Shown here piece by piece: positions 3,207-40,360 of a stretch of 64,000 bases of DNA. Made by a program: the position numbers and the translations under genes. Every line of letters begins with the position of its first letter. Position 1 is the first letter of the stretch. Below the pieces are notes generated by a model. The model made no database searches. It was not told the origin of the DNA and saw nothing but the letters and a program-made list of their open reading frames with translations. The DNA is taken from contig JBHJOR010000032.1 in the NCBI GenBank assembly GCA_050329585.1, positions 1,228 to 65,227 of the forward strand. Reading direction: 5' to 3'. The DNA is from Candidatus Methylacidiphilales bacterium. Its GTDB lineage: Bacteria > Verrucomicrobiota > Verrucomicrobiia > Methylacidiphilales > JBCBYL01.

Positions 3207-4745
3207 TTATTTGCGGGTGGCTTTGAATTCTTCCAAGGTGGACTTGAGTTGTTCTATCAAGGTAGTATCCAGTGCTTTTTTGTCAGCGATCTCTTTCATT
3301 ATGGCTTCTTTACGGTTGGCCATATATTCCATTAATGCGGCTTGGAATTCTTTGACTTCGGCGACGGGAACATCGTCAAAATGCCCGTTCTGGACCGACC
3401 ACATCACCACCACTTGCTGTTCCAGAGAGATGGGATGGTACTGCTGTTGTTTAAAGACTTCAACGATGCGGGCTCCACGATCCAGTCGTGCCTTGGTGGT
3501 GGCGTCCAGATCCGAAGCAAACTGAGCGAAGGCTTGTAGCTCACGATATTGGGCAAGCTCCAGCTTGACTTTTCCGGCGACGGATTTGATGGCTTTGGTC
3601 TGGGCTGAAGAACCCACGCGGGAGACGGAGATACCCACGTTGATGGCAGGGCGTATTCCCTGATAGAACAGATCACCCTCAAGGAAAATCTGACCGTCGG
3701 TAATGGAGATCACGTTGGTCGGGATGTAGGCCGACACGTCACCTGCCTGGGTTTCAATGATGGGCAGGGCCGTAAGCGAACCCCCACCGGCTTCCGGACT
3801 CAACCGTGCGGCGCGTTCCAGCAGGCGGGAATGCAAGTAGAAGACGTCGCCCGGATACGCTTCCCGTCCGGAGGGGCGCTTGAGCACCAACGAAATCTGG
3901 CGGTAAGCGGCAGCATGCTTGGAGAGATCGTCATAAACGATGAGTGCATCCATCCCGTTCTGCATGAAATATTCTCCCATCGCCGCTCCGGCAAACGGAG
4001 CAAGATATTGGCTGGTGGCGGAGTCCGATGCCGTGGCGGCAACGACCGTTGTGTATTCCATGGCGCCACTTTCCTCAAGGGTGGCCACGATGTTAGCCAA
4101 ATTGGCGCGTTTTTGACCAATGACCACAAAGATGGAATAGAGCGGGCGAAATTCCGGATCACCCGAGGCCAAGCCAACCCGGTTGAGTTTGGCTTGATTG
4201 ATAATGGTATCAATGGCCACCGTGGTTTTGCCTGTGGAACGATCTCCGATAATCAATTCACGCTGACCGCGTCCGATAGGAATCATAGCGTCGATAGCCA
4301 TGATACCGGTTTGCACCGGCTGGTTGACTGATTTCCGGGCGATGATGCCCGGAGCGAGCTTTTCTACTGGATTATAGGTGTCGGTTCGGATAGGGCCTTT
4401 TTCGTCAATCGGATTTCCCAATGTGTCCACCACCCGGCCGAGCAACGCCTTGCCGACGGGAACCTGCAGGAGTTTACCGGTAGCCTTAACTTCATCGCCT
4501 TCTTTAATACGGTTGAACTCGCCGAGAACGATGGCACCGACTTCAGTTTCTTCCAAGTTGAGAGCCAGCCCCATGGCACCATTGGAGAACTCAATCATCT
4601 CATTGTAGGCTATTTCGCTTAGGCCTTCAATTTTGGCCACTCCGTCACTGATCTCGCGGACGGTGCCCACGTTGGTTTGGGTGACGCTGGTTTTGAGTCC
4701 TTTAATGGACGCTTCGATTTCTTCCAATACATTGGCGTTGCTCAT
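3207..4745 (-). CDS. atpA: F1Fo ATP synthase subunit alpha
   Basis: 512 aa; Walker A GDRSTGKT, full-length alpha-subunit similarity. Confidence 0.98.
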
Positions 4746-15628: not shown

Positions 15629-16423
15629 GTGCTATCAAGTCATGACATGAGCACTCAAAACGCGGCAACACCTCCGCCGTTGGAAGTTCACGACCTGACT
15701 GTCGCCTATCATAAAAAGCCGGTTCTTTACGGTATTGATCTGTCTGTTTCAGAAGGAAATCTGGTGGGCATCATCGGGCCCAACGGAGCGGGTAAATCAA
15801 CCCTCATCAAAGCGGTGATGGGTCTGCTGCCCGCGTCCAGCGGTTGGGTCAAGATTTTCGGGAAATCCTACAAAGAGAATTGCCATCGGGTGGGATACCT
15901 CCCCCAGCGCGAATCCGTGGACTGGGATTTCCCCGTCAACGTGATGGATGTCGTGCTGATGGGTCGCTATGGACACCTGCGACTGGCCCAACGTCCCACT
16001 AAAAACGATCGGGAAATCGCCCGCCAGTGCCTTGAAAAAGTGAAGATGCTGCCCTTTGCCAACCGTCAAATCGGGAACCTCTCCGGCGGGCAGCAGCAAC
16101 GTGTCTTCTTAGCCCGTGCTCTGGCCCAGGAAAGCGATCTCTATCTGATGGATGAACCCTTTGTCGGGGTAGATGCTGCCACCGAATCGGCCATCATCGA
16201 CATTCTTCGTGAATTAAGATCTCGTGGCAAGACGCTGCTGGTGGTTCATCACGATCTGCCCAGTGCCCGTGACTATTTTGACCAGTTGATACTTTTGAAT
16301 ATGCGACTGGTGGCCTACGGATCCACGCCCAAGGTGTTTACTCCGGAGTTACTGCAGACCACCTACGGTGGACGTCTCACCATTCTTTCAGAAGTGGTTC
16401 AGACTATTGGAGCGCAGCCATGA
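15629..16423 (+). CDS. Metal ABC transporter ATP-binding protein
   Basis: Walker A GPNGAGKST, signature LSGGQQQRV, Walker B LYLMDEP; overlaps the next gene by 4 nt. The start may be the ATG at 15647. Confidence 0.92.
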   Translation: MLSSHDMSTQNAATPPPLEVHDLTVAYHKKPVLYGIDLSVSEGNLVGIIGPNGAGKSTLIKAVMGLLPASSGWVKIFGKSYKENCHRVGYLPQRESVDWDFPVNVMDVVLMGRYGHLRLAQRPTKNDREIARQCLEKVKMLPFANRQIGNLSGGQQQRVFLARALAQESDLYLMDEPFVGVDAATESAIIDILRELRSRGKTLLVVHHDLPSARDYFDQLILLNMRLVAYGSTPKVFTPELLQTTYGGRLTILSEVVQTIGAQP

Positions 16424-17874
16424 GGTGGTATAGCTTTGCTGCGGGGTTCGTCCTGCTTTTACTGCTTCCCGAAGCGGCCCATGCGGCCCGCATTAATGAG
16501 TTATCCGACTCCACTCTGTGGGATCGGACTGTTCGCTTTTTCACCTTTCAAGATCCCTCGCTTCGTTTTGCATTATTAGGATCTATGCTGCTTGGCATCG
16601 CCTGCGGGCTAATGGGTGTATTTCTGGTGGTGAGAAAATTGTCCTTGATGGGCGATGCGTTATCGCATGCGGTTCTTCCCGGAGTGGCTCTCGGATTTCT
16701 TTGGAACATGAGCAAAGATCCTGTGGCTATTTTCCTGGGAGCAACGCTGGTCGGTCTTCTGGGGGCTGGAACGGTCCAACTCATCCGCAACACCACCCGG
16801 CACAAAGAAGATGCGGCACTGGGATTTGTGCTGGCCTCCTTTTTCGGAGTTGGCATCTGCCTCTTCACAATGATTCAAAACCTGCCCGGCGGGAACAAAA
16901 GCGGTCTGGATCAATTCATGTTTGGCCAGGCCGCTGCACTTGGTCAAAGCGAAGTGATCCTGCTAGGGGTGGTAGCGGCACTAGCTTTGGGTTCGATATT
17001 TATTTTTTACAAAGAGTATGGCATCACCAGTTTTGATTCCGGTTTTGCCCGTTCCTTGGGTATGCCGGTTCAACTCTTTCACTATAGCTTAATGCTCCTT
17101 TTGGCCTTTTCTATTGTGGCTTCACTACAAGCGGTTGGAGTGGTCTTAGTCTCAGCCATGCTGGTCATACCGGCAGCAGCGGCCTTTTTATTAACCGATC
17201 GGCTGGGATCCATGTTGCTGCTTTCCGCTTTATTTGGACTTTGCGCGGGTGCGATGGGGACTTTTTTTTCATTTGTGGGGAGGAATCTACCCACAGGCCC
17301 GTTCATGGTTCTGGCGGCGGGAACGGTCTTTGTATTGGCACTGTTCCTCGGGCCCAGACACGGTATTCTGGCCCGCTGGTGGCGGCAGCGATCCCGCTCG
17401 GCGCGCATCCAGCGGGAGAATACGCTAAAAGCTATTTACCATGTTCTGGAGGATGATCTCTTTCGCGGGGAACAAATCAGTCTCCGCGAGCTGGCGGAAC
17501 GCCGTCGGGAGACACTGGAAGATGCCCGACACCAAGTGGGAAAGATCTGCCGTCATGGCATGGCAACGCTGGTTGGAGATGCTGTAGCCTTTACTCCTGC
17601 GGGTTGGCAGCGGGCTTGTGAGATTGTTCGCAATCACCGCCTATGGGAACTCTACCTGACGCATGCCGCCCACATCGCAGCGGATCATGTTCACGAAGAC
17701 GCGGAAAAAATTGAACACATCCTCGGTGAGGACAGCGTTAGGCAGTTGGAAAAGCGCCTCAATTATGCGCGCAGAGACCCTCACGGTAAACTCATCCCCG
17801 GCCTTGAAGACATGAGCGGTGGCACGGGCCCTCTGACGACGCGGCGGACCACCGGATTTGGAGTTTCTTATTAA
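16420..17874 (+). CDS. ABC-3 metal permease fused to a C-terminal DtxR-like repressor (YtgC-YtgR-like)
   Basis: The first ~320 aa are a polytopic ABC-3 permease. The last ~160 aa read TLKAIYHVLEDD...ISLRELAERR...NHRLWELYLTHAAHIAADHVHEDAEKIEHILGEDSVRQLEKRL, i.e. wHTH plus DtxR metal-binding/dimerisation domain. Confidence 0.85.
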   Translation: MRWYSFAAGFVLLLLLPEAAHAARINELSDSTLWDRTVRFFTFQDPSLRFALLGSMLLGIACGLMGVFLVVRKLSLMGDALSHAVLPGVALGFLWNMSKDPVAIFLGATLVGLLGAGTVQLIRNTTRHKEDAALGFVLASFFGVGICLFTMIQNLPGGNKSGLDQFMFGQAAALGQSEVILLGVVAALALGSIFIFYKEYGITSFDSGFARSLGMPVQLFHYSLMLLLAFSIVASLQAVGVVLVSAMLVIPAAAAFLLTDRLGSMLLLSALFGLCAGAMGTFFSFVGRNLPTGPFMVLAAGTVFVLALFLGPRHGILARWWRQRSRSARIQRENTLKAIYHVLEDDLFRGEQISLRELAERRRETLEDARHQVGKICRHGMATLVGDAVAFTPAGWQRACEIVRNHRLWELYLTHAAHIAADHVHEDAEKIEHILGEDSVRQLEKRLNYARRDPHGKLIPGLEDMSGGTGPLTTRRTTGFGVSY

Positions 17875-19603: not shown

Positions 19604-20872
19604 ATGTCCCGCCCCATAGTTTCAACCCTTATCCTCTCCACGATGATGGCCCTCCTCTGCGCCGGGTCATGTTGGTGGGGTTGGCACGTTTCGTTATTCA
19701 AGTTTTGGGATCACGCCGCTCAGGACTGGGCGCAGAACCAATTTCAAACGGAGGCAATCGAGGAAACTCCCCTGGTTTATGTCAAGATAGGGGATATCGC
19801 AGATCAACCCTGGCCATGGCCCAGTTTGGATTATGCGATTCTGGCTCACTCGCTTTCACGGTTTCATCCCAAGGTGGTGGTTTTTGAAGTGCCTGTTCCC
19901 AAAGTGGAGCCCTCAACGACGGCCTACGACATCCAGCTTAAGAATCAGCTCAAACGATTGAACCTGCTGATTCTATCGGTTCCCGTTCGAACCACCGGCA
20001 TCACGCTCGGAGAAGAACTCTCTCCGCGACCTTTTGCCACGCTTCCAGAAAATCCATCGATACCTGCTTATGGATCAGGAATCTGGCCACTCAATGAAAT
20101 CCGTGAGGTATCGCGCCTGCACCTTCAGGCCTATCCTGCAGATCCCGACGGCTTGGTGCGTCGCATTCCCCTGATTATTAATTACCAAGGCCGCTCGACT
20201 GCCAGTCAGGTTCTGGCCGCCTATGCCGCCTATCGCGGGGCCGATATAGCGGCATCCGGCGTTGTTTTGGGTCAATCCATCCGGCTCAAAAACAAAGCGG
20301 GTGAATTTCTGGAATCGATTCCCGTCAATCATAACGGCGAATTGACTCTGAAGCTGCGCCGCGACTCCACGCATTTGAGGAAAGAGGTGGAATTTTACTC
20401 GGTCATTCTGGCGGCGGAGGAACAATACCATGCGGGCTCCCCTTCCTTTGACCTCGGCGTCCTCCGTCAAAGTCTGGTTTTAGTTGGCAGAGAAAATGCT
20501 TATTCTGTGGAAAGCCTGCCAACCCCAACCGGAACAATAACTCCGGCCCGATTACAACTCAATGCCCTTAGCAACTTGATTCAGCGCGATTATCTTCAAC
20601 CCATCACCCCGCTTGCCATGAGTCTCTTGCTACTCCTAAGCGCTTTCACCGGAATAGGATGCTCCCGGCTCCTGAATGCAGTCGGCGGGCTGATCGTCTT
20701 GCTGTTCGTAGGCGGCCTGCTGGTGGGAGGCTCCGTCGTTTTTTTTGTTCACTGGAATTTCTTAATCGACCCCTCCGCTCCTCTAGTATGCCTGGTGGTT
20801 TCATGGTGGATGGGTCGAACCCTGCTGCCATATTTCGAACTGGTCATCAGCCCTGAAGCAGATTCAATCTGA
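19604..20872 (+). CDS. CHASE2 sensor-domain membrane protein without an output domain
   Basis: N-terminal TM, ~300-aa periplasmic region (VYVKIGDIADQPWPWPSLDYAILAHSLSRFHPKVVVFEV, DPDGLVRRIPL) and a C-terminal cluster of TM helices, after which the protein ends. Confidence 0.7.
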   Translation: MSRPIVSTLILSTMMALLCAGSCWWGWHVSLFKFWDHAAQDWAQNQFQTEAIEETPLVYVKIGDIADQPWPWPSLDYAILAHSLSRFHPKVVVFEVPVPKVEPSTTAYDIQLKNQLKRLNLLILSVPVRTTGITLGEELSPRPFATLPENPSIPAYGSGIWPLNEIREVSRLHLQAYPADPDGLVRRIPLIINYQGRSTASQVLAAYAAYRGADIAASGVVLGQSIRLKNKAGEFLESIPVNHNGELTLKLRRDSTHLRKEVEFYSVILAAEEQYHAGSPSFDLGVLRQSLVLVGRENAYSVESLPTPTGTITPARLQLNALSNLIQRDYLQPITPLAMSLLLLLSAFTGIGCSRLLNAVGGLIVLLFVGGLLVGGSVVFFVHWNFLIDPSAPLVCLVVSWWMGRTLLPYFELVISPEADSI

Positions 20873-20892
20873 CTCTAGCCCGCTCCGATATC

Positions 20893-23481
20893 ATGTCGCT
20901 TCCCTCCTCCACATCCTTTTCCCAACTCAGTCAGGAGCTGATACGTCAGACTGAATTCTGCGGAGAAAACGGCAAAACGCGTGCATTTTATTGCGACTTG
21001 GTTCAAACCCTTCAGCAGACACCGCAGAAAGTTTTAAAAGAGCGCCAGGAACGCGTTGCCAACTTGGCGCGGGAATTAGGCATCCACTTTTCCCCGCATC
21101 GCGATGGACAGGTGACCGATCACAACTGGCAACTCGACATCATTCCGCGGCTTATCGACCCTGCCGAATGGCGAGTCATCGAGGCAGGTCTGATTCAGCG
21201 AATGCGTGCATTCAACGCGTTACTCGACGACATCTATCACCAACGTTCCATTCTCAAGGATCGCATCATTCCCTTTCAGCTTATTTACGACGATCCCGCC
21301 CACCTCCTTCCCTGCCACGGCATCCAACAGCCCGGTAATATCCATCTCACCTTAGGAGCAGTGGATATGGTCAGGGATCGGCGCGGACGGTGGGTCATCA
21401 CCTCCAACCACTATTCCCTTCCCAACGGACTCTCCTTCGTGCTGCAAAACCGCCGCATGTTAACCCAATCGTTCCCTGAGATTTTCCACCCGGTTCCGAT
21501 TGTTCCGGTGACCGGTTTCACCTCGGATCTGGCCGAAACGCTGTCCGCATTATCCCCCGTCTCCAAACCTCTGGTCGTCATGCTGACCTTATCGCGGGAT
21601 CATCGTCACTGGTTTGAAGAAAGTTTCTTGGCGCGCCGTATGGGTTTCCCCTTGGTTGAACCTGGTGACCTTCTGGTGCGTGACAACCGCGTCTATCTTA
21701 AAACAGTGGGAGGCCTTGAACGTGTCGACGTCATCTATCGCCGCGCACCCAGCAGGCTTTTGGATCCCATCGCCTTCCGCAGCGCGCGTGGCTCCGGTAT
21801 TCCCGGACTGCTCAATTGCGTGCGCAAGGGCTCGGTCGTCATCGCCAACGCCTTCGGGGCGGGCGTTGCCGACAACAAAGCACTTCTTTCTTATTCCGAT
21901 GCCATCATTCGATATTATCTCGGCGAAGCCCCCATTCTTCCCACCGCCACCACCTATTGGTGCAGGGATCGCGATCAACTGGAATACGTTAAATCGCATC
22001 CGGGCACCATGTTGTTGAAGCCCATACACCGTCATGTTGAGACTGCACCCGCGAACGGGCTCGAAGTGAGTGATCAGTATGATTACCTCAAAAAAATGGA
22101 TCTGATGCTGGAACAGAGCCCGGATCTGGTGGTGGCACAGCCTTACATAGACGCCTCTTGTGCTCCACTGTATCAGGACGGGAAATTCTGGTCGCGCCCC
22201 GCATACCTGCGCGCGTTCTGCCTCATTGGCACCAAAGCGAGCGTGCTACCGGGAGGGTTGACCCGTCAGGCACTGCCCGGTGAAAGCCATCATTACATAG
22301 CCGATTTGGCCGGGGGAGCTAAAGACACCTGGATTCCCGCCTTCGGAACCTCCACTCCCGTTCCCAGCAACCAAGCTCTCCAACTGGCTCGTAAACGTGT
22401 CGAAGAGAAACCGTTCCGCACCACCAGCCGCGTCGCCGAGCAACTCTATTGGACCGGTCGCTATCTCGAGCGCGCCGAGCACACCGCGCGCATGATCCGT
22501 ATTCTGCTCGAACTTGGCTGGAACTCCCTCTCGACACGAGAGAAACTCAACCGCTGGCCGCTCTGGCAGGGTGTTGCCGCCTCCACCGGTCACGAAGATC
22601 TCACCAAATCCAAGAAACCCCCGACTGAAACCCTGCCCATCGCACGCGAGTTGGTTCTGCACTCGGAAAAAGCCTCATCTATCCTTAATTGCGTCCGCTT
22701 CGCCTCACGCAATGCCAGTGAAATACGCGAATTCTTAACCCCGGAAGTGTGGAGCGTGCTCAACCGCTTTTTGCTGCGGCTTGAAGACACGCCGCATAAA
22801 ACCCGCATCTCCGCCACGCGGCTTCAAGATGTCTGCCTTGAAACCACCGAACATGTGGCCCTCATTAATGGAACGATCAGCAGAACCATGCCGCATGACG
22901 ACGGCTGGCAAGCCTTTCGCTGCGGAGTTCTGCTGGAGCGTGCCTTGGGCACCGCTACTGTTCTCGGTATCGTTTTACCCCAAGCCATTCTGTTTCATAG
23001 TCACGATCACGATCAGGATCCCGACCTCACCTCACTGCTGCGTATGCTCGGATCGTTAGACGCCTATCAACGCGAATACCGCTCCCGCGCCTACCTACGA
23101 CAGGTTGCTGAACTGCTCTGGAAAAAAAACGACATCCCCGGTTCCATACTCTATTGCTTGCGAGAACTCAGCCAGCACCTCACTGCGCTGGAAGAGAAGG
23201 CGCGTCTTAAATCCACCCGATCCCCGCTGCACCGCACACGACGTCTGGAAAAAGCGCTCGACACTCTTGATACCTTTCCGCTCTTTCCGCGGCGCAATCT
23301 GGATTCTGACCTTATGGAATCCAACCTGAAAAAAGAAAATCAGCCCATGTCACGAAGCGTCCAGCAGTTGGGCCAGAGATGGATCGCAGAACTGGCCGCG
23401 CTTCACGATTTGATCGAAGACGCTTTTTTTAGTCACCTCCCCGGAACCGCGCGCCATTTGGGTCGTCGCACTAAGCCATGA
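20893..23481 (+). CDS. Circularly permuted ATP-grasp (type 2) fused to an alpha-E domain
   Basis: 862 aa; GSVVIANAFGAGVADNKALLSYSDAIIRYYLGEAPILPTATTYWC (CP-ATP-grasp), then SRVAEQLYWTGRYLERAEHTARMIRIL (alpha-E). Confidence 0.85.
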   Translation: MSLPSSTSFSQLSQELIRQTEFCGENGKTRAFYCDLVQTLQQTPQKVLKERQERVANLARELGIHFSPHRDGQVTDHNWQLDIIPRLIDPAEWRVIEAGLIQRMRAFNALLDDIYHQRSILKDRIIPFQLIYDDPAHLLPCHGIQQPGNIHLTLGAVDMVRDRRGRWVITSNHYSLPNGLSFVLQNRRMLTQSFPEIFHPVPIVPVTGFTSDLAETLSALSPVSKPLVVMLTLSRDHRHWFEESFLARRMGFPLVEPGDLLVRDNRVYLKTVGGLERVDVIYRRAPSRLLDPIAFRSARGSGIPGLLNCVRKGSVVIANAFGAGVADNKALLSYSDAIIRYYLGEAPILPTATTYWCRDRDQLEYVKSHPGTMLLKPIHRHVETAPANGLEVSDQYDYLKKMDLMLEQSPDLVVAQPYIDASCAPLYQDGKFWSRPAYLRAFCLIGTKASVLPGGLTRQALPGESHHYIADLAGGAKDTWIPAFGTSTPVPSNQALQLARKRVEEKPFRTTSRVAEQLYWTGRYLERAEHTARMIRILLELGWNSLSTREKLNRWPLWQGVAASTGHEDLTKSKKPPTETLPIARELVLHSEKASSILNCVRFASRNASEIREFLTPEVWSVLNRFLLRLEDTPHKTRISATRLQDVCLETTEHVALINGTISRTMPHDDGWQAFRCGVLLERALGTATVLGIVLPQAILFHSHDHDQDPDLTSLLRMLGSLDAYQREYRSRAYLRQVAELLWKKNDIPGSILYCLRELSQHLTALEEKARLKSTRSPLHRTRRLEKALDTLDTFPLFPRRNLDSDLMESNLKKENQPMSRSVQQLGQRWIAELAALHDLIEDAFFSHLPGTARHLGRRTKP

Positions 23482-24353
23482 TTTTCCGCATTACTCACAA
23501 AACGGTTTACCATTACCAGTCGCCTGCCTCCGAGTCGTATGGAGAGCTGCGCATTTGCCCGCTTTCGAATCCTTCTCAGGCGGTTCTTAAGCGCCAACTC
23601 ACCGTCACGCCGGCCACCCGCATACGGCATTACGATGATGTTTTTGGAAACCGCGTGGAATTTTTTTCCATACCCCACCGGCACGACATGCTGGAAGTGC
23701 ACGCCACCGCCGAGGTGCGCACCCACCCGCAAACGATGCCCGAGGCGGCAGAGTTGATAACCATTGCTGAAAGCCGTCAGGTCTTAGCCCGGCGGCTGAT
23801 GGACAACTACATTTACCTTCGCGCCACACCTCTTGTTCCCCTGCACGGAGTCCTTACCCCCCTGCGCACAGACTTCATCAAGCGTCATCAATCCATCGCG
23901 TCCGCTCTACTGTTCGTCAATCAATGGATCCACAAAAATATTCAATACCAGCCGGGGGTCACCAACAGTAACACCGCCCTACAGACGATCATCCAAAAAC
24001 GACGCGGCGTCTGTCAGGACTTTGCTCATTTAATGCTCTCCATTCTACGCACCTATGAAATTCCGGCGCGCTACGTCAGCGGATACATAGAAGCGTATGA
24101 TCCTTCGACGACCGACCCCGCACTGGTGGGAGCCACGGCTAGTCATGCCTGGGTCGAGGCCCTCTTGCCTGGAGGCCAATGGGTGGGACTCGATCCGACC
24201 AACAATCAGATCGCCAGTGAGCGTCACGTCCGTGTCGCGGTGGGCAGAGACTATCAGGATGTTGCTCCCTTGACCGGAACCTTTAAGGGTGCTCATAACC
24301 AGAATCTCAATGTGATCGTTTCCGTAAAGCGCAAAAAAAAGCCATCGTTATGA
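23478..24353 (+). CDS. Transglutaminase-like cysteine protease family protein
   Basis: MIFRITHKTVYHYQSP (Bact_transglu_N); Cys/His/Asp contexts GVCQDFAH, ASHAWVEA, GLDPTN; ATGA overlap with both neighbours. Confidence 0.9.
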   Translation: MIFRITHKTVYHYQSPASESYGELRICPLSNPSQAVLKRQLTVTPATRIRHYDDVFGNRVEFFSIPHRHDMLEVHATAEVRTHPQTMPEAAELITIAESRQVLARRLMDNYIYLRATPLVPLHGVLTPLRTDFIKRHQSIASALLFVNQWIHKNIQYQPGVTNSNTALQTIIQKRRGVCQDFAHLMLSILRTYEIPARYVSGYIEAYDPSTTDPALVGATASHAWVEALLPGGQWVGLDPTNNQIASERHVRVAVGRDYQDVAPLTGTFKGAHNQNLNVIVSVKRKKKPSL

Positions 24354-26479
24354 ACAATTCAGGATCTCTGCAACCCTCCAGTCCAGAAACGGCTTGTAGC
24401 AGAATCGAGGCCCTCCTTCGCCGCCACCGCATCACGCTGACCATGGGAGGAGAACCTACGTTTGTCCCGTTGGATCCCAAGGGTGACGAATGGAGTCTCG
24501 CTGCGCTGGGACCCAGCAAACTGGGCTACGCCCGCGCCATGGCACTTCACCTTATCGAGTCCTCATGGCCTGGAGCACTGATGCTGCAGACTTACGGTAA
24601 AACCTACCCGGGTGAACCTTTACCTCGTTGGAATATCGTTATCGAAATGCGGCACCGCTTTGATCAATCTCCCTTGTGGAACCGTCCTCAGCTACTCACG
24701 TCTGACCAACCGCCCGCTCGTCCTGTAACCGCCGCTCAAGCCTCCTCACTGGCCCGGCTCATTGCCCGCCGACTGGGTTTTGCAGACTATCTCATGCGTT
24801 TCCGTGAGGTGGAATCCGGCCGGGCTCCGGCATGGGTGTTACCTCTTCTTTTTGATGACGAAACCATGGTTTTCCAGACCGCCCGCTGGACGCTGGAAAA
24901 AAAGCAACAGACTCTGATCCCCGGTGACAGCACTGCTGGACTGCGATTACCTTTGGATCGGCTGGCCCCGGACACCCCCCGAAAGGCATTAGTTATTCAA
25001 GCTCAGGATTCCGCCGTGATGGTTTTTATTCCGCCATTGAGCCGCCGCGGGTTTGACCTGCTTACGCGTGTTGTCGAGGAAAGTTGTCAGAGCTTGCCCG
25101 ACCACTCCGTGATGCTGGCGGGATATCCGCCCACCGACGGATCGATGTTCGACCGGCTGATTTTGGCGTCAGATCCCGGCGTGCTGGAAATCAACCTGCC
25201 GCCCAAAGAAAACTGGATCGAACACCGGCACATCTTGCGGCAGGTTTACGACGCGGCCCACGCCGTGGGCCTGTGCGCCCGCAAATTCCACTTCAATGGG
25301 GATATTCATGGAACGGGAGGCGGTGCTCACTTGGCTTTTGGGGGTGCCACCGTGGAACAAAGCCCCTTCCTCACGCACCCTACCCTTCTTCGATCCGTAG
25401 TGCGCTACTGGCATAATCACCCCTGCCTGAGCTACTTGTTTACGGGAATCTTCGTAGGACCCGGATCCCAGGCCCCACGTGTCGATGAATCCAATCCCCT
25501 CCTGCTCCAAGAACTTGAATTGGCTCTTTCCTCACCACTACCGCGACGCCCGACTTTTGAAAATATCTACCTGCCGTTGCGCCATTTTTTTGTGGATGCT
25601 GCGGGCAATACCCACCGGGCTGAAATCTGCCTGGATAAACTCTGGAATCTTTCTTCGTCCAATGGCTGCTCCGGATTGATAGAATTCCGCGCTTTTGAAA
25701 CCTGTGAATCAGCTGACGAACTGGCTTGGGCTTCCTTACTCATCCGGGCGGTTATCACCCGCCTCATTCACCGGCCCTACACGGAACCACTTCGCCCCTG
25801 GGGAAACGTGCTGCACGATGCCTATTTTTTAAAACCCTTTTTGGAACAGGATCTGGAATCCATTCTTCAAGATTTGGAAAGCTGCAACATCTCACTGCCT
25901 CGCTCCGCCTTCAGCTCTTATTGGGCCAGGCGTTTTCCACACCTCGGCACATTTGAGTTCGGGGAGAATCGGCGCTTGGATTTTTACTCCGCGCCGGAAA
26001 TCTGGCCGCTACTGAGTGAGGTTCCCTCGGGCAGTGTCACGTCCCGGCCGGTTGATGTCAGTAATGAACGCATCATGGCTCTGGCCTCACATGCCCCGAT
26101 CTCGCGGCAGGGATGGTTGCGCTGTGCGGATATCCCGTTCCAACTACGCACCCATGGCCGCAAGGCCTTGCGCGGTATACGCTTCCGGGCTCTCGTCTCA
26201 GTCAACTCGCTGCATCCGCATCTTCCGGTGCACGTCCCGCTAAAAATCCAATGGGTGGACGCGGCCTCCGGCATGGTCACTCACTCGGCACGCTTCTATC
26301 CTTGGAATCCCGGTGGTAAAGATTACCCCGGACGCCCGAAAACGGCCGAAGAAGCCGCACAGAGACGCAAGGAACGTTGGGTCACCCCCACGTTCAAACC
26401 CTCGCGTCACGGGAACAAACCACCCCTGAAAGACCAACAGGGATGGACATTTGATCTCCGGCTAACGCGGCAGACTTAA
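24350..26479 (+). CDS. DUF2126 putative glutamine-synthetase-like amidoligase
   Basis: 709 aa; LTMGGEPTFVPLDPKGDEWSLAALGPSK...YPGEPLPRW block typical of DUF2126. Confidence 0.8.
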   Translation: MNNSGSLQPSSPETACSRIEALLRRHRITLTMGGEPTFVPLDPKGDEWSLAALGPSKLGYARAMALHLIESSWPGALMLQTYGKTYPGEPLPRWNIVIEMRHRFDQSPLWNRPQLLTSDQPPARPVTAAQASSLARLIARRLGFADYLMRFREVESGRAPAWVLPLLFDDETMVFQTARWTLEKKQQTLIPGDSTAGLRLPLDRLAPDTPRKALVIQAQDSAVMVFIPPLSRRGFDLLTRVVEESCQSLPDHSVMLAGYPPTDGSMFDRLILASDPGVLEINLPPKENWIEHRHILRQVYDAAHAVGLCARKFHFNGDIHGTGGGAHLAFGGATVEQSPFLTHPTLLRSVVRYWHNHPCLSYLFTGIFVGPGSQAPRVDESNPLLLQELELALSSPLPRRPTFENIYLPLRHFFVDAAGNTHRAEICLDKLWNLSSSNGCSGLIEFRAFETCESADELAWASLLIRAVITRLIHRPYTEPLRPWGNVLHDAYFLKPFLEQDLESILQDLESCNISLPRSAFSSYWARRFPHLGTFEFGENRRLDFYSAPEIWPLLSEVPSGSVTSRPVDVSNERIMALASHAPISRQGWLRCADIPFQLRTHGRKALRGIRFRALVSVNSLHPHLPVHVPLKIQWVDAASGMVTHSARFYPWNPGGKDYPGRPKTAEEAAQRRKERWVTPTFKPSRHGNKPPLKDQQGWTFDLRLTRQT

Positions 26480-35421: not shown

Positions 35422-36204
35422 TTATTTTCTTCCGAAGGGCCAGATGTTTTTCGGGTTGGGTTCCGTGGCGTCGGTCTGGATGCTTTTAAATTCTGATGCC
35501 ACGGCGGAGGCGCGCACCGGAAGCTGTATTTTCTGGGTTTCGGATCCAAAGGTGAAGGGCACGGCCACTTTCGGATCGCTCAATTCCGAAGTGGAGCTTA
35601 AAGGTATGTATTGAAAGTGACACAGTCCCACTTGGATTAGATCGCCTACTCTTAATTTTTTGGCAGCCGTCATAGCCGCACCATTGAGATAGGTGCCGTT
35701 GAAGGAATCCAAATCATCTAAAAGATGGTTTTTTCCGTTCCACAGGATGCGGCAGTGCCGACCGGAAACCGAAACATCGGGCACCGTAATATCACACTCA
35801 TTACTCCGTCCGATAATGACCGTTTCGGTGCCCAGAGAAAAAAGCGCATTATCTAACGTGATAAACGCGAGGCCAAATTCACTTTGATCGATGTTCTCCT
35901 GAGGGGACTTGTGAGCTGCGGCGGCAGCTTCATCGGCTCTTTTGGCCCCTTCCAATAGCAAAAACTGAGTGCCTTGATGGATAGTTCGCGGAACCTGAAT
36001 TTCTTTTTCTTGAAAGGAAACCTCACACTTTTCACGCAACAGCATGGTAAAAAACGCATCTTCCCCCTCATTTTCTCCATAACGTGCGGAAGCTACCTCA
36101 CCATCTATAATGGTAATCCATCCTTCCAGCGTATCGCCCGTGTAGGATACCAAACCAGTGCGTTTGGCGGTTAGACAGAAGTGTAAGAGTTCGGCTAATT
36201 TCAT
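35422..36204 (-). CDS. DUF4388 (PATAN-like) plus FHA domain protein
   Basis: N-terminus LAELLHFCLTAKRTGLVSYTGD...GEVASARYGENEGEDAFFTML (DUF4388); C-terminus VIIGRSNECDITVPDVSVSGRHCRILWNGKNHLLDDLDSFNGTYLNG (FHA). Confidence 0.8.
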   Translation of the reverse strand: MKLAELLHFCLTAKRTGLVSYTGDTLEGWITIIDGEVASARYGENEGEDAFFTMLLREKCEVSFQEKEIQVPRTIHQGTQFLLLEGAKRADEAAAAAHKSPQENIDQSEFGLAFITLDNALFSLGTETVIIGRSNECDITVPDVSVSGRHCRILWNGKNHLLDDLDSFNGTYLNGAAMTAAKKLRVGDLIQVGLCHFQYIPLSSTSELSDPKVAVPFTFGSETQKIQLPVRASAVASEFKSIQTDATEPNPKNIWPFGRK

Positions 36205-36518
36205 GTCAAAACGATGAATGAGAGTAAGGCACCTTCTTCGTGCGTAATCTTTTTTGAGTGCTAAATTGTTCTGTAACCATCGTCGGCCATGACATCCCGA
36301 TCATTTTTTTACTGACGGGCTCAATTCCTCTCTCAAAATAGAAAAACCACAGAAAAGGAAAAGGATTATTCGGAAAATTGTTCGCTAGAAAAAAAACTTC
36401 TGTTAGAAGTACCTTTGACTTAATCGCGTTTACAAGTTAATACAGTGAAAAGCGTGTTAATAAATGTACTACCCAGCAGAAGCTGACGTCCTTAATTTGA
36501 GCCTTATCCATAAGCCCT

Positions 36519-38426
36519 ATGAGCCTATTTAGTAAAAATTCGCCTCCTAAGATGTTGGCCAAACCTACTATAGTAGGAGCAGGAAAACCTCCTGCTCCGC
36601 CCTCCAACATCAGTTCGGCGGATCAAGCTCCACGTAAGCGGATTACTCAGCGGCTGGTGCTGGGTGGAAAAGGGGTGGAGACTGGAGAAATAAATGTCGG
36701 TATGGGTTTAAAAATTCCGGGAGCTCCTGATCCGATAGTCAGCCAAATGATTCCAAGCATGGTGACGGGAGGCACTCTCGAAGTTCCGGTCGCATCACTC
36801 TTAGGCTACATTCCAGTAGAATTCGTCACGAGGGATCATGAATTCCTTTACCAATCCCCTCTGTCACAACAAATGGCATCCCTGCCCTTAGGTCAGATAC
36901 TCACTCTCTTGCCATCGGGGAAAATCGAGATTCTAGCTCATGAGCTATCCGCTAGCATGCCGCCGGGTGTGATGAAAAGTGCGGATGAATTGGGCGATTA
37001 CGCCTACAGTCCGGTTGCTCTTCCTCTTCAAGAAATCATCAGCCGTATTCCGGAAGAAGCACTCACACTTCGTTCCGACCAAAAACCGATTGATGACTCA
37101 GTGACGCGTATGGATGATCCTTTCTCTGCTGAAATGCTGGCCGCGGCACAGGAAGCATTGAGGCAACAACAAGAAGCGGGTGCATTTGATATCAACGAAC
37201 CTGAGGATATCCCCGTTGCCGCTCCTGCTATTCAGGAAGAACCACTTGCTGCTGAATACGCTGAAGCACCTGTTCTGGAATCCGAAGACGCCCCCGTTGC
37301 CATGGAGAGTGAGGAGGAACTTGAATCAGATTTATCCGATATCAATCAGGAGGACACGGTGGTCGGACTTCCCCATGAAGAGGAAGATAATGCCCCCGAT
37401 GCCTTAGATCTTTCATTCACCCAGTCAGAGGAATATCTCAAATTCTTGGCCCAGTCAGAAAGCGAAGGAATAGAAGCTGCCACCGCCACTCAAAATGAGC
37501 CCGAGCTACCTCCAGACCAGCCCTTCGAGGAGCCCATGGAAGAAGCACAATATGAAGAAGCGGACGTTTCTCCTGTGGATTACGCTGAAGAGGAGATTTC
37601 ACTCGCCCTACCACCCGATGATCTTTCCGACACCGAAGTAACCAAAATTATTCCACGTGCACCCATGGCCGGTGAAATCCCTTCCCCTGCCCCAACCGAC
37701 GCGGACAACCCTCTTTTCGCCCCTACCCGTGTCATAGCAAAGTCCAAGCCGGCTCATTCTCCTGCTCGTCCCATGCCGAACATTCAAGCCAAGGCCAGTG
37801 CTCCTCTCACCGGGTTCAAGTTGCCACCTCCCCCTTCCAGCAAAATATCCGCTCCCGCAAAAGCGCCATCCGCTATCACTCCTCCCCACTTCAATGCCCC
37901 ACCTCCCGCTGCGGCAAATCCAGCTTTTTCATTTCAAAAACAGGCGACGTTACCACCTCCACCTCCGACCTCGGCACCTCTAGTGGCAGCCGCTCCTTCG
38001 CACGCCGCCAGCGATCAACTGCTGAGCGACCGTTTGATTGGACTCTTAGGAATGCGGAACCAGAATCCCCCTACCCTCAAAGAAGTGGTCACCCAAATGA
38101 ATTCTTGGCCGGGTATGAAAGGTTGTATCGTGGGTGGAAAAGACGGACTAAAAATCAGCTCCGATATGGAGGATGATGCCTTCGCCAACTCGATTGCCGC
38201 CTTTGCTCCCAAATTGATCTCACGCATCACGGAAATTTTCCAAGACATGGGATTCGAAGAAGTTCAAGAGCTTCACACCCCCATCCGCGACTCAAGCGTG
38301 TATGTCTTCCGTGACCGCGATTTATATTTGATAGCACTCTTTAATGATGTGGCCTTTCCGGAATCCTACCGGTTGCACATCAAGGAAGTTCTGAAAGAAT
38401 TGAACACACTCAAACTGGGAGCATAA
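36519..38426 (+). CDS. Large low-complexity scaffold protein with a C-terminal Roadblock/LC7 domain
   Basis: 635 aa; N-terminal repeated hydrophobic-LP motifs, ~170-aa acidic segment, Pro/Ala-rich segment, then LKEVVTQMNSWPGMKGCIVGGKDGLKISSDMEDDAFANSIAAFAPKL...LYLIALFND (Roadblock-like). Confidence 0.7.
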   Translation: MSLFSKNSPPKMLAKPTIVGAGKPPAPPSNISSADQAPRKRITQRLVLGGKGVETGEINVGMGLKIPGAPDPIVSQMIPSMVTGGTLEVPVASLLGYIPVEFVTRDHEFLYQSPLSQQMASLPLGQILTLLPSGKIEILAHELSASMPPGVMKSADELGDYAYSPVALPLQEIISRIPEEALTLRSDQKPIDDSVTRMDDPFSAEMLAAAQEALRQQQEAGAFDINEPEDIPVAAPAIQEEPLAAEYAEAPVLESEDAPVAMESEEELESDLSDINQEDTVVGLPHEEEDNAPDALDLSFTQSEEYLKFLAQSESEGIEAATATQNEPELPPDQPFEEPMEEAQYEEADVSPVDYAEEEISLALPPDDLSDTEVTKIIPRAPMAGEIPSPAPTDADNPLFAPTRVIAKSKPAHSPARPMPNIQAKASAPLTGFKLPPPPSSKISAPAKAPSAITPPHFNAPPPAAANPAFSFQKQATLPPPPPTSAPLVAAAPSHAASDQLLSDRLIGLLGMRNQNPPTLKEVVTQMNSWPGMKGCIVGGKDGLKISSDMEDDAFANSIAAFAPKLISRITEIFQDMGFEEVQELHTPIRDSSVYVFRDRDLYLIALFNDVAFPESYRLHIKEVLKELNTLKLGA

Positions 38427-38432
38427 TCAGAC

Positions 38433-39059
38433 ATGGCTTTTATCAATTACTCTAAGCGGGAAATACAGCTTAAGATCGTTTATTACGGCTGCGCGTTGTG
38501 TGGGAAGACTACCAATCTGATCAATCTTCACGCCGGAATCAACAATACCCAAAAAGGAGAACTGGTTTCACTGGCTACCGATGCGGATCGCACCTTGTTC
38601 TTTGACTTTCTGAGCTTGAACACCAGGACGCTACCGGGGTTCGATACGCGCTTCCAGCTCTACACGGTTCCGGGACAGCCGGTTTATAACACCACCCGCC
38701 AGCTCGTTCTCAAAGGTGTCGATGGAATCGTTTTTGTGGTAGATTCCCATTGGGATAAGATGGAGGAGAATGTCGAATCGTTTGCCAATCTCCAAGAAAA
38801 CCTGATAGAAAACCACCTCAGCCTCGCCCAGATCCCCTACGTCATCCAATACAACAAACGAGACATCGAGAATCCCGCTCCCATGCACTATCTTGAATTT
38901 ACGTTCAATAACCGGGCCGCCAAAGTATTGTCATTCGAGGCTGCAGCTGTTAGCGGTGAAGGCGTTTTGAATACCCTCAACGGCATCGCACGCCTCTTGC
39001 TGGCTAAATACTCCAAATCTGCCGGCGGCACAAAATCCGTCCCCTCGGGCAACTCTTGA
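38433..39059 (+). CDS. mglA: MglA-type Ras-like small GTPase
   Basis: MAFINYSKREIQLKIVYYGCALCGKTTNL, DRTLFFDF, YTVPGQ and QYNKRD are collinear with Myxococcus MglA along the full length. Confidence 0.92.
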   Translation: MAFINYSKREIQLKIVYYGCALCGKTTNLINLHAGINNTQKGELVSLATDADRTLFFDFLSLNTRTLPGFDTRFQLYTVPGQPVYNTTRQLVLKGVDGIVFVVDSHWDKMEENVESFANLQENLIENHLSLAQIPYVIQYNKRDIENPAPMHYLEFTFNNRAAKVLSFEAAAVSGEGVLNTLNGIARLLLAKYSKSAGGTKSVPSGNS

Positions 39060-39071
39060 TAGAAAAATATT

Positions 39072-39536
39072 ATGGCCAGTATCGGAATGCTCTCCATTGA
39101 GGATCAAACTCAGATCGAATCACATCTGAAGGATTTCCTAGTCAAAGCTGAAAGCCGTTGGGCCGCTCTGGTGGATCGCGGAGGAAATCTCTTTGCGGAA
39201 CAGGGACAGACCGGGTCGCTGGACATGACGATCCTGTGTGCTCTAGCTGCCGGATCATTCTCAGCCACTCGTGAACTGGCTAAACGCCTTGGTGAGGGAG
39301 AGTTTAGTGCCCTTTATCATGAAGGCCACGGGGTTAGTATCCTGATGACCGCCTTAGAACATGAGTGTCTGCTGGTTACGGTCTTTAGCGGAGATACCAA
39401 CATTGGTTTGGTTCGATTTTATTCACAACAAACCGCCCCTCACCTTAACCATGTTCTGCAACGCGCCAGTGAGGCTCCGGAGCAAAGCCTGTTAATCGAG
39501 GCATCTCTCCATGATGGAGGCTCCATTATTTCTTGA
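39072..39536 (+). CDS. mglB: Roadblock/LC7 protein (MglB-like)
   Basis: 154 aa; WAALVDRGGNLFAEQG...LAAGSFSATRELAKRLG...HECLLVTVF has a Roadblock pattern; sits immediately after mglA. Confidence 0.8.
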   Translation: MASIGMLSIEDQTQIESHLKDFLVKAESRWAALVDRGGNLFAEQGQTGSLDMTILCALAAGSFSATRELAKRLGEGEFSALYHEGHGVSILMTALEHECLLVTVFSGDTNIGLVRFYSQQTAPHLNHVLQRASEAPEQSLLIEASLHDGGSIIS

Positions 39537-39546
39537 AACCCACGGA

Positions 39547-39849
39547 ATGGGCCCACTGCGTAACGCGGTTGGTCACCCTGACACGTTGGAAAGCACTGAC
39601 CTTTCACATGCTTTTGCAAAAAGCTGGCAGGTCATCGTCTGGAATGATCCGATCAACCTGATGAGCTACGTGGTGTATGTCTTCAAGAAGGTTCTGGGCT
39701 TCGGCGAACCCTTGGCAAAAAAACACATGCTTGAAGTTCACCAGCAAGGACGTAGTTGCGTCGCCCGGGAAACCCGGGAAAAAGCTGAGCACCTCATGTC
39801 TCAATTACGCCAACACGGTTTACAGGTAACACTGGAATCCAAAGATTGA
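39547..39849 (+). CDS. clpS: ATP-dependent Clp protease adaptor ClpS
   Basis: WQVIVWNDPINLMSYVVYVFKKVLGF...AKKHMLEVHQQGRS. An alternative start at 39511 would overlap mglB. Confidence 0.9.
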   Translation: MGPLRNAVGHPDTLESTDLSHAFAKSWQVIVWNDPINLMSYVVYVFKKVLGFGEPLAKKHMLEVHQQGRSCVARETREKAEHLMSQLRQHGLQVTLESKD

Positions 39850-39856
39850 TACGCTC

Positions 39857-40360
39857 ATGCAAATCCTGCGCACTTCACGCGGCATTGAGCTCATTCTCTT
39901 TCACGCGGAAGCCCACCTCTTCAAACAGTCATTAAATGAAATCCGTCATAACTACCAACAAGGATTGGACGAGTTACCCGACGGAGTCAAAAAATGGTGG
40001 TGCCAGCCCACCCCCGATATGGATCCTGAGGATGAAGCTTCCCTCAACCAGGAACTGCACCACGGTCGCTTCCAGCACATCAGCCTGATTGACGCTCTAC
40101 TCGTGCTACTGGACTCCGGTTCCGATTCGCCCAAGGTTATCCCCTTGGATATGTCTCAAGCTGATATATTGGTCATCCTAGTCAACGATCACAGGCTCTA
40201 TCTGGCCGGGCAGCACCAGATTGGCGAATCTGAAATGATTCAGGATTGGAACGACATCAAGCCCGGCCCGATGCAACATGCCCTCTTGCAAATACACTTT
40301 CTAGCTTGGATGTTGGAACTGCTGATCCTGCGATTATCCGGAGACGAGGGTTCCGAGTAG
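39857..40360 (+). CDS. Hypothetical protein, possibly DUF2017-like (ClpS-associated)
   Basis: 167 aa, 7 nt after clpS. My recollection is that DUF2017 genes follow clpS in other phyla, with a similar ...NDhRLxL... segment (ILVILVNDHRLYLAG). Not verified. Confidence 0.4.
   Translation: MQILRTSRGIELILFHAEAHLFKQSLNEIRHNYQQGLDELPDGVKKWWCQPTPDMDPEDEASLNQELHHGRFQHISLIDALLVLLDSGSDSPKVIPLDMSQADILVILVNDHRLYLAGQHQIGESEMIQDWNDIKPGPMQHALLQIHFLAWMLELLILRLSGDEGSE

Follow-up and report, generated by a model that had tools for sequence, protein, structure and literature searches.

A conserved MglA/MglB locus of Verrucomicrobiota encodes a scaffold-like Roadblock protein and a divergent PATAN-FHA protein and is a candidate spatial switch for type IV pili

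We analyzed a 64-kb stretch of DNA (here called the window) from a metagenome-assembled genome (MAG) of Candidatus Methylacidiphilales (Verrucomicrobiota) and, within it, four genes (positions 35422 to 39536) centered on a gene for the polarity GTPase MglA. On the plus strand lie, in this order, the gene for a 635-amino-acid (aa) Roadblock protein, which we call the scaffold, mglA, and mglB; a gene encoding a PATAN domain and an FHA domain is transcribed divergently on the minus strand (Table 1). We lean toward the interpretation that this locus is a verrucomicrobial MglA/MglB spatial switch that controls type IV pili and has two dedicated partners. The locus had been singled out in an earlier interpretation of the DNA letters (the sequence-only reading), whose four open reading frames (ORFs) were recovered here with identical coordinates. 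The PVC (Planctomycetes-Verrucomicrobia-Chlamydiae) host that it had supposed is indeed one, as the MAG belongs to Verrucomicrobiota/Methylacidiphilales.

The GTPase is an orthologue of the Myxococcus polarity GTPase with all catalytic residues kept. It aligned over its full length (residues 1 to 198) with Myxococcus xanthus MglA (E value, 4.1e-60; ~60% identity in the alignment) and Thermus thermophilus MglA (E value, 3e-54). Group-1 MglA proteins are recognized by GxxxxGKT, an Arg after switch I, TVPGQ with Thr in place of Asp, and NKxD (Wuichet 2014). Inspection of the translation revealed the P-loop GCALCGKT, the intrinsic Arg in DADRTLFFDF, the G3 motif YTVPGQ, and NKRD, all of which align with known MglA motifs, and the claim that the protein is collinear with Myxococcus MglA and complete in its GTPase motifs is upheld. 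The group is also marked by an mglB gene within four genes, and here mglB lies 12 nucleotides (nt) downstream of mglA. Its product, which had been described as a Roadblock/MglB-like protein of canonical size, matched MglB of M. xanthus (E value, 6e-17) and of T. thermophilus (E value, 7e-10) and scored 37.3 bits against Pfam Robl_LC7 (PF03259; cutoff, 23). Against the Thermus-type NCBIfam model NF052242 it scored 62.3 bits (E value, 5.6e-17), under the equivalog cutoff of 200, and is thereby classed as a homologue, not an equivalog, of that model. The protein is predicted to be the cognate Roadblock-type GTPase-activating protein (GAP) of MglA.

To follow the arrangement beyond the window, 96 related loci were collected, ORFs were annotated by seed searches, and only loci with enough flanking DNA were counted. 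Collapsing scaffolds that were ≥90% identical left 77 clusters, which fall into two clades: the window's own clade, whose scaffolds carry a single N-terminal domain (the N-module, described below), and a sister clade with two such modules, whose scaffolds are 21 to 27% identical to the window protein. mglA adjoined the scaffold gene in all 61 clusters that could be scored (9/9 in the close clade and 52/52 in the sister clade), and mglA was followed by mglB in all 53 (8/8 and 45/45, respectively). A divergent upstream PATAN gene was found in 57 of 58 clusters; it always encoded PATAN plus FHA in the close clade (8/8) and always a receiver (REC) domain plus PATAN in the sister clade (49/50). The partner domain therefore changes from FHA to REC between the clades, and PATAN is constant. 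Directly after mglB, the close clade has a gene for ClpS (8/8) and the sister clade often one for a PilT/PilU-family ATPase (13/31, against 0/7 in the close clade), which scored 337.8 bits against TIGR01420 (cutoff, 319.1) and lies a median of 15 nt after mglB. Secretin or prepilin genes occur near the module in three relatives (L001, L095, and L096).

The four-gene module is thus conserved rather than a chance juxtaposition. It is very improbable that the genes are neighbors by inherited synteny alone and that the large protein is functionally unrelated to MglA/MglB. Close-clade conservation is partly plain synteny, since the close clade keeps even the positions of TruB, RibF, ClpS, and DUF2017. 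The outer flanks in the sister clade, however, are unrelated, and yet the trio is retained there in 45/45 clusters and the PATAN gene in 49/50, which argues for function and already contradicts an explanation by synteny; the intergenic gaps of 1 to 12 nt likewise speak against it.

Alignment of the scaffold with its homologues revealed a conserved N-terminal region, a linker variable in length and sequence, and a conserved C-terminus. In a full-length AlphaFold model the N-tail is disordered (predicted local distance difference test score [pLDDT], <50). The N-module that follows was modeled from a 34-sequence alignment as three strand-LP-helix units and a C-terminal helix (pLDDT, 93.4; predicted template modeling score, 0.74), and the same fold reappeared in the full-length model. 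The sequence-only reading had listed three hydrophobic-LP motifs in this protein. The motifs are present, but the model places them as strand-helix units of a single globular domain, not as separate linear motifs. Pfam gave no match to the N-module, weak ones included, in a scan of 34 members; no PDB sequence matched at an E value of ≤10; and a Foldseek search of the PDB found nothing significant, receiver domains included (best E value, 6; template modeling [TM] score, 0.17). As modeled, the N-module is a previously undescribed, confidently folded domain. The acidic and Pro/Ala-rich runs reported for the linker were confirmed (residues 216 to 400 contain 29% Asp plus Glu; residues 401 to 505 contain 24% Pro and 22% Ala). 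The linker has a pLDDT of mostly <50 outside one conserved helix, in which all close-clade members have D297, S299, and F300. The large protein hence retains its description as scaffold-like: an N-module, a disordered linker of ~280 residues, and a Roadblock domain. In some scaffolds a ComEA-like helix-hairpin-helix (PF12836) stands just before the Roadblock domain (L095, 5001-7985; L096, 4839-7166; L007, 1216-3324), and one of these is named "helix-hairpin-helix domain-containing protein" at NCBI because of this insert.

The C-terminus of the scaffold is predicted to be a true Roadblock domain, the second one that had been proposed for this locus. As a single sequence it scored 22.1 bits against Robl_LC7 (PF03259; cutoff, 23). 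Three homologues (P0006, P0185, and P0274) carry a precomputed PF03259 match, and a nine-sequence family profile matched solved Roadblock proteins in the PDB with an E value of 6.8e-7. AlphaFold modeled residues 504 to 634 with a pLDDT of >94 and the topology alpha-beta-beta-alpha-beta-beta-beta-alpha, which is the Roadblock fold plus a C-terminal helix. Foldseek ranked M. xanthus MglB (6hjm) first (E value, 1.7e-8; TM score, 0.75; root mean square deviation, 2.2 Å), followed by Asgard Roadblock3, dynein LC7, and LAMTOR2, and TM scores across the MglB/LC7/LAMTOR2/Asgard set were 0.75 to 0.85. These eukaryotic and Asgard proteins, together with LAMTOR3 in Ragulator, share the fold, are among the best structural and profile matches, and serve as small-GTPase platforms; they differ in that they are free-standing proteins of ~100 to 120 aa, whereas here the domain forms the C-terminal end of a bacterial scaffold of 635 aa. 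The two Roadblock domains of the locus are as unlike each other as had been claimed: BLASTP between the scaffold domain and the operon MglB found nothing, and a profile-profile comparison gave an E value of 0.18 at 16% identity, in register over 106 columns.

This divergence bears on two other accounts of the scaffold. In the first, which was the model of the sequence-only reading, the scaffold Roadblock and MglB would pair as a heterodimer, yielding a GAP of MglA that is asymmetric and tethered to the scaffold. In its favor, mglA is always flanked by genes for two very unlike Roadblock domains, and Roadblock heterodimers are the rule in Ragulator/LAMTOR and in the Rag C-terminal domains, which are among the structural matches. 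The MglB dimer, moreover, is reported to bind MglA asymmetrically (PMC11016934). We nevertheless judge the heterodimer unlikely: the characterized bacterial Roadblock regulators (MglB and MglC) are all homodimers, MglC contacts MglB dimer-to-dimer (PMC10329633), and the two domains share just 16% identity. A second account, to which we give somewhat less credence still, makes the scaffold the missing guanine nucleotide exchange factor (GEF) or effector of MglA, which with MglB as the GAP would complete the GTPase cycle within one operon, much as Roadblock and longin platforms do for Rag and Rab GTPases. It accords with the order scaffold, GTPase, GAP and their near-translational coupling, as well as with the lack of any RomR or RomX homologue in the fetched loci. 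Roadblock complexes, Ragulator among them, are reported to serve as platforms for GTPases (PMC3747258), and MglB, the best structural match, is reported to have both GAP and GEF properties (PMC13408092). Set against this, no catalytic feature is readable from the scaffold sequence, genes for RomR and RomX could be present at other sites in the genome, and the scaffold Roadblock is not detectably closer to a known GEF subunit than to MglB or LC7.

The protein encoded across the divergent spacer has PATAN (DUF4388) and FHA domains, both above their Pfam cutoffs, which bears out the earlier assignment of this gene and of its AT-rich spacer. The pThr-binding residues of the FHA domain (G132, R133, S147, H150, N169, and G170) were invariant among 10 orthologues of 25 to 55% identity. 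NCBIfam comparison showed similarity to FhaB/FipA (E value, 1.9e-18) and OdhI (E value, 4.8e-12), far below the equivalog cutoffs. The disordered, otherwise variable N-tail of the scaffold holds the sequence RKRITQRLVL, and its pattern, [KR]xTQR[LI], was found in 11/11 scaffolds paired with PATAN-FHA and in 0/84 paired with REC-PATAN. Among 38 single-module members, with identities down to 22%, 34 retain it; the other four lack the N-terminus. The pairing recurs in L095 from Methylacidiphilales, whose 994-aa scaffold (22% identity) has the TQR motif, a divergent PATAN-FHA gene, MglA, and MglB, with a prepilin-type gene nearby. A preference for Ile or Leu at pT+3 is common among FHA domains, and TQ sites are favored by many bacterial Hanks kinases. 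These features suggest that KRxTQR[LI] is a candidate phospho-threonine docking site, and we propose Thr43 as a kinase target read by the FHA domain because the FHA residues are invariant and the TQR motif is matched to FHA. The phospho-threonine input through FHA that had been postulated is supported insofar as the binding residues are invariant and TQR[LI] occurs only with FHA-type partners; phosphorylation itself we infer.

Further inspection of the FHA protein revealed, in the close clade, a second T-Q-[KR]-I motif in its own tail, followed in the window protein by a conserved terminal IWPFG; its T-Q-K-I core matches the T-Q-R-L of the scaffold. GarA and OdhI switch when they bind their own phospho-motif in cis, and the presence of the motif in the tail of the window protein and in its partner would fit GarA-type competition in cis and trans. 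Like GarA/OdhI and FhaA/FhaB of actinobacteria, the window protein has a canonical FHA domain and a T-Q-basic-hydrophobic motif both in its tail and in the partner; unlike them, it has no linked kinase, and its scores, well short of the equivalog thresholds, place it outside their families. Two PATAN-FHA orthologues (L012, 2800-3687, minus strand; L095, 3852-4889, minus strand) end in a hydrophobic, transmembrane-like segment, which the window protein lacks, and this suggests that PATAN-FHA is membrane anchored in some lineages. The L096 protein (3407-4675, minus strand) has lost FHA, and its PATAN domain is joined without a break to a DHH/DHHA1 (NrnA-like) phosphoesterase; this looks like a deletion fusion, because a DHH gene lies directly downstream of PATAN-FHA in relatives.

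In the interpretation that we favor, the scaffold would be the localization scaffold of the switch, combining in one polypeptide the roles of RomR, the polar scaffold, and MglC, the Roadblock adaptor. Its Roadblock domain would dimerize and dock MglB and/or MglA, localizing or concentrating them, and the N-module would fix the complex to some cellular site or machine. Through the PATAN protein the switch would be connected with the type IV pilus motor, a link that PATAN domains make in cyanobacteria. In the window's clade, a Ser/Thr kinase whose gene is unlinked would phosphorylate Thr43 in the KRITQRL tail, and the FHA domain would then bind this phospho-Thr43; the receiver domain of the sister clade would serve the same purpose through phospho-aspartate. 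The output would be where and when pili extend or retract. A pilus is proposed as the target because of PilT in the sister-clade operons, the secretin and prepilin genes nearby, and the binding of PilB1 and PilC by PATAN, which is an output domain in Synechocystis and there sets the direction of pilus activity (bioRxiv 10.1101/2021.06.11.447907). The same study notes that genes for MglA/MglB homologues are frequent neighbors of PATAN genes. Among the cyanobacterial PatA-type PATAN-REC proteins (PixE, PixG, and LsiR), PATAN is likewise fused to a phospho-sensing domain, and the sister-clade protein is exactly REC plus PATAN. The window protein differs from them in that FHA replaces REC, the order is PATAN and then FHA, the PATAN domain is short (~95 aa) and without the long alpha-clip insertion, and the gene is paired with MglA/MglB, not with a chemotaxis operon.

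A polarity or positioning switch might instead act on something other than pili; division, envelope growth, a different secretion machine, and DNA uptake are examples. The absence of a pilus gene from both the close-clade operons and the window fits such a target, as do the ComEA-like insert of some scaffolds and the control of predation, sporulation, and other processes by MglA-family GTPases elsewhere (PMC3983030, PMC4316618). It is opposed by the PilT genes of the sister-clade operons (13 of 31 clusters), by the experimental link of PATAN to PilB and PilC, and by the secretin and prepilin genes near the module in three relatives; on balance we regard a nonpilus target as improbable.

Several observations weigh against the proposal of a pilus-controlling switch organized by the scaffold. 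The 64-kb window contains neither a pilus (PilT or pilin) or secretin gene nor a kinase gene, PilT is never in the operon in the window's clade (0/7), and that clade also keeps its housekeeping neighbors TruB, RibF, and ClpS. The correlation between FHA and the TQR motif amounts to essentially one phylogenetic split, and L096 keeps the motif though its PATAN protein has lost FHA. The scaffold has no receiver domain (no Response_reg match at an E value of ≤0.1) and is not a RomR homologue. A profile of the scaffold Roadblock family found no MglC or MglB chain by sequence at an E value of ≤10, and MglC is absent from the top 50 Foldseek matches; for these reasons the analogy of the scaffold with MglC is functional only. 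An MglC orthology of the scaffold Roadblock, considered in view of McLoon 2016, was rejected on the same grounds (no MglC at an E value of ≤10 or in the top 50 Foldseek matches). The expectation that the large protein matches no characterized MglA partner family is borne out, as it is neither RomR nor detectably MglC.

In Myxococcus, RomR recruits MglC and MglC recruits MglB, a contact that MglA-GTP breaks; MglC is a Roadblock homodimer with an FDI surface for binding MglB and a KRR surface for binding RomR, and the homodimers dock as MglC2:(MglB2)2 (Carreira 2023, PMC10329633). RomR consists of a receiver domain, an intrinsically disordered region, and a Glu-rich C-terminus (PMC10329633). The Myxococcus polarity module (MglA, MglB, MglC, RomR, RomX, and RomY) resembles the window locus in its Group-1 MglA, its MglB GAP, and its second Roadblock protein. 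The disordered Pro-rich and Glu/acidic regions of RomR also have counterparts in the scaffold, where their order is reversed, and this is a compositional analogy only. The window locus differs in three respects: scaffold and second Roadblock are one polypeptide encoded in the mglAB operon, whereas romR and mglC are unlinked in Myxococcus; the N-module stands in place of the RomR receiver domain; and no Frz-type chemosensory genes were seen. We raise more tentatively, as a possibility well short of probable, that the scaffold represents an unrecognized class of polarity organizer, in which an N-module of new fold and a Roadblock adaptor are joined and a Ser/Thr-gated TQR tail recruits PATAN-FHA to the pilus motor. 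If this were true, the scaffold with MglA and MglB would make a compact, self-contained spatial switch, and an MglA system would have been rewired from His-Asp to Ser/Thr-kinase signaling within one phylum.

The general plan of the locus (PATAN, MglA, and two MglB-family genes) is already known, and the locus adds a variant. Coupling of a Group-1 mglA to two mglB-family genes has been noted in some cases; of the two, a single one co-evolves with MglA, and PATAN genes lie nearby (Wuichet and Sogaard-Andersen 2014, PMC4316618). Table S2 of that study lists PATAN/MglA/two-MglB neighborhoods in Chloroherpeton, Chloroflexus, and Herpetosiphon (Chlorobi and Chloroflexi), and its sole Verrucomicrobia entry is a Group-5 MglA of Methylacidiphilum infernorum. 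In a later analysis, one coupled Roadblock fell in the MglB clade and the second in a separate clade, usually of the MglC type (McLoon 2016, PMC4719450). The Chlorobi/Chloroflexi neighborhoods (also Makarova et al. 2006) share with the window a divergent PATAN gene, a Group-1 mglA, and two Roadblock genes; they are known from catalogue lines only, in which the second Roadblock has no domain analysis. The earlier statement that no role is described for such a module has to be qualified by these catalogued neighborhoods. In the literature searched we found no description of the scaffold family or its N-module, of a scaffold and second Roadblock fused in one operon-encoded protein, or of an FHA-type PATAN partner with a matching motif, and none of these features was described in Verrucomicrobiota.

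A profile search with the N-module returned 1,269 representatives of 50%-identity clusters at an E value of ≤1e-3 and 739 at ≤1e-10, and a second search from a distant two-module member returned 708 further 90%-identity clusters. Among the best 155 representatives, 105 have one to three N-modules and a C-terminal Roadblock; the remainder are fragments or proteins of 1,000 to 1,650 aa with 3 to 7 N-modules. Giant multi-N-module proteins (metagenomic P0014, P0018, P0025, P0043, and P0055) have no Roadblock domain, and a Pfam scan of the long multi-N-module proteins found no domain; the N-module occurs outside the MglA scaffold context too. All organism-named members are Verrucomicrobiota (Methylacidiphilales, "Verrucomicrobiae bacterium," or "Verrucomicrobiota bacterium"), a taxonomic breadth that rests on few named proteins. 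A GTDB scan with alignment A4 yielded only 5 close loci; a metagenome scan yielded 80 sister-clade loci with alignment A7 and none with A4. In databases, the family is named only "roadblock/LC7 domain-containing protein" or COG2018. Two loci titled "uncultured Blastochloridaceae bacterium" (Alphaproteobacteria), L010 (CAYGPJ010000009.1) and L012 (CAYTLD010000011.1), carry the full Verrucomicrobiota-type locus with a TQR-motif scaffold, PATAN-FHA, and ClpS, and these MAG labels are probably wrong.

Table 1. Positions of the genes and features of the locus in the 64-kb window
Feature	Position	Strand	Description
PATAN-FHA gene	35422..36204	-	260 aa; Pfam DUF4388 and FHA above cutoffs
FGSETQKIQLP motif, aa 219-229	35518-35550	-	Conserved in the protein's own C-terminal tail
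FHA (PF00498), aa 129-193	35626-35820	-	64.5 bits (cutoff, 20.7)
PATAN/DUF4388 (PF14332), aa 1-93	35926-36204	-	42.5 bits (cutoff, 25)
Divergent spacer	36205..36518	.	314 bp; AT-rich, 38.2% GC (window, 52.3%)
Scaffold-Roadblock protein gene	36519..38426	+	ORF, 635 aa
RKRITQRLVL motif, aa 39-48 (Thr43)	36633..36662	+	In disordered N-tail; candidate phospho-Thr site
N-module, aa 84-220	36768..37178	+	Compact alpha/beta domain as modeled by AlphaFold
Disordered linker, aa 221-503	37179..38027	+	Acidic, aa 221-400; Pro/Ala-rich and basic, aa 401-503
Amphipathic helix in linker, aa 297-316, DLSFTQSEEYLKFLAQSESE	37407-37466	+	Conserved; pLDDT ~84
C-terminal Roadblock/LC7 domain, aa 504-635	38028..38426	+	Predicted; Pfam near cutoff, profile, Foldseek
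mglA	38433..39059	+	Group-1-type Ras-like GTPase, 208 aa
mglB	39072..39536	+	Roadblock-domain GAP homologue, 154 aa

The scaffold gene is the first of a tight operon and is predicted to be cotranscribed with mglA, which begins 6 nt after its stop codon. Both divergent promoters presumably lie in the spacer; a promoter/terminator scan (sigma-70-type) found no more sites than in shuffled sequence and did not locate them. An NCBI protein from a MAG, annotated as "roadblock/LC7 domain-containing protein," matches the scaffold with 100% identity. The NCBI annotation begins at Met12 and gives 624 aa (start region, 36519-36551); we favor the 635-aa start because homologues conserve MS.FGK at residue 1. 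Downstream of mglB are a ClpS gene (39511-39849) and a DUF2017 gene (39857-40360). Counted from its first ATG, the ClpS ORF would share 26 nt with mglB, an overlap that is probably not real because ClpS homologues start later. These two genes were considered as operon members and set aside: they follow mglB in 8/8 close-clade and 0/41 sister-clade clusters, and housekeeping synteny is also kept in the close clade, so that their position looks like lineage synteny, not module membership.

Elsewhere in the window, positions 16420-17874 encode a metal ABC-3 permease fused to the C-terminal metal-binding/dimerization domain of an iron-dependent repressor, within a ZnuA-type transporter cluster. 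Positions 19604-26479 hold a CHASE2-only protein and then a three-gene cluster (circularly permuted ATP-grasp/Alpha-E, transglutaminase-like, and DUF2126), unrelated to the MglA locus. In the related loci, the MglB gene of L096 (7857-8321, plus strand) had been overlooked by the gene caller. Most sister-clade loci have two further genes after REC-PATAN, of ~100 and ~129 aa (L014, 8191-8511 and 7805-8194; L013, 4485-4787 and 3360-4457; all minus strand), neither of which had a Pfam or NCBIfam match; the ~100-aa gene is conserved after the PATAN gene in 36/46 sister-clade and 0/8 close-clade clusters, and the ~129-aa gene is triplicated to 365 aa in L013. The 100-aa protein starts with MG(F/L)L.KLFGG, the 365-aa protein of L013 ends with GFFGRLFGR, and scaffolds start with MS.F(G/S)K; these three terminal sequences may represent one short motif in common.

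MglA/MglB is the model for a switchable bacterial front-rear axis, and mechanistic knowledge of it comes almost entirely from Myxococcus. The family described here, with >1,200 cluster representatives, points to a second, widespread solution in Verrucomicrobiota. With a putative localization scaffold and second Roadblock in one operon gene, the partners are named by gene order rather than by genetics. The swap of FHA for REC on a constant PATAN, matched by gain of the TQR motif, offers a testable case in which a signaling input is exchanged and the core kept, and the binding partner of the N-module would reveal the means by which the switch is anchored. Soil, water, and gut harbor abundant Verrucomicrobiota, and to our knowledge nothing is known of how these bacteria control surface behavior. 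The main value of the locus lies in its scaffold family, which is large and unannotated and has a new domain, and in a testable phospho-switch hypothesis.

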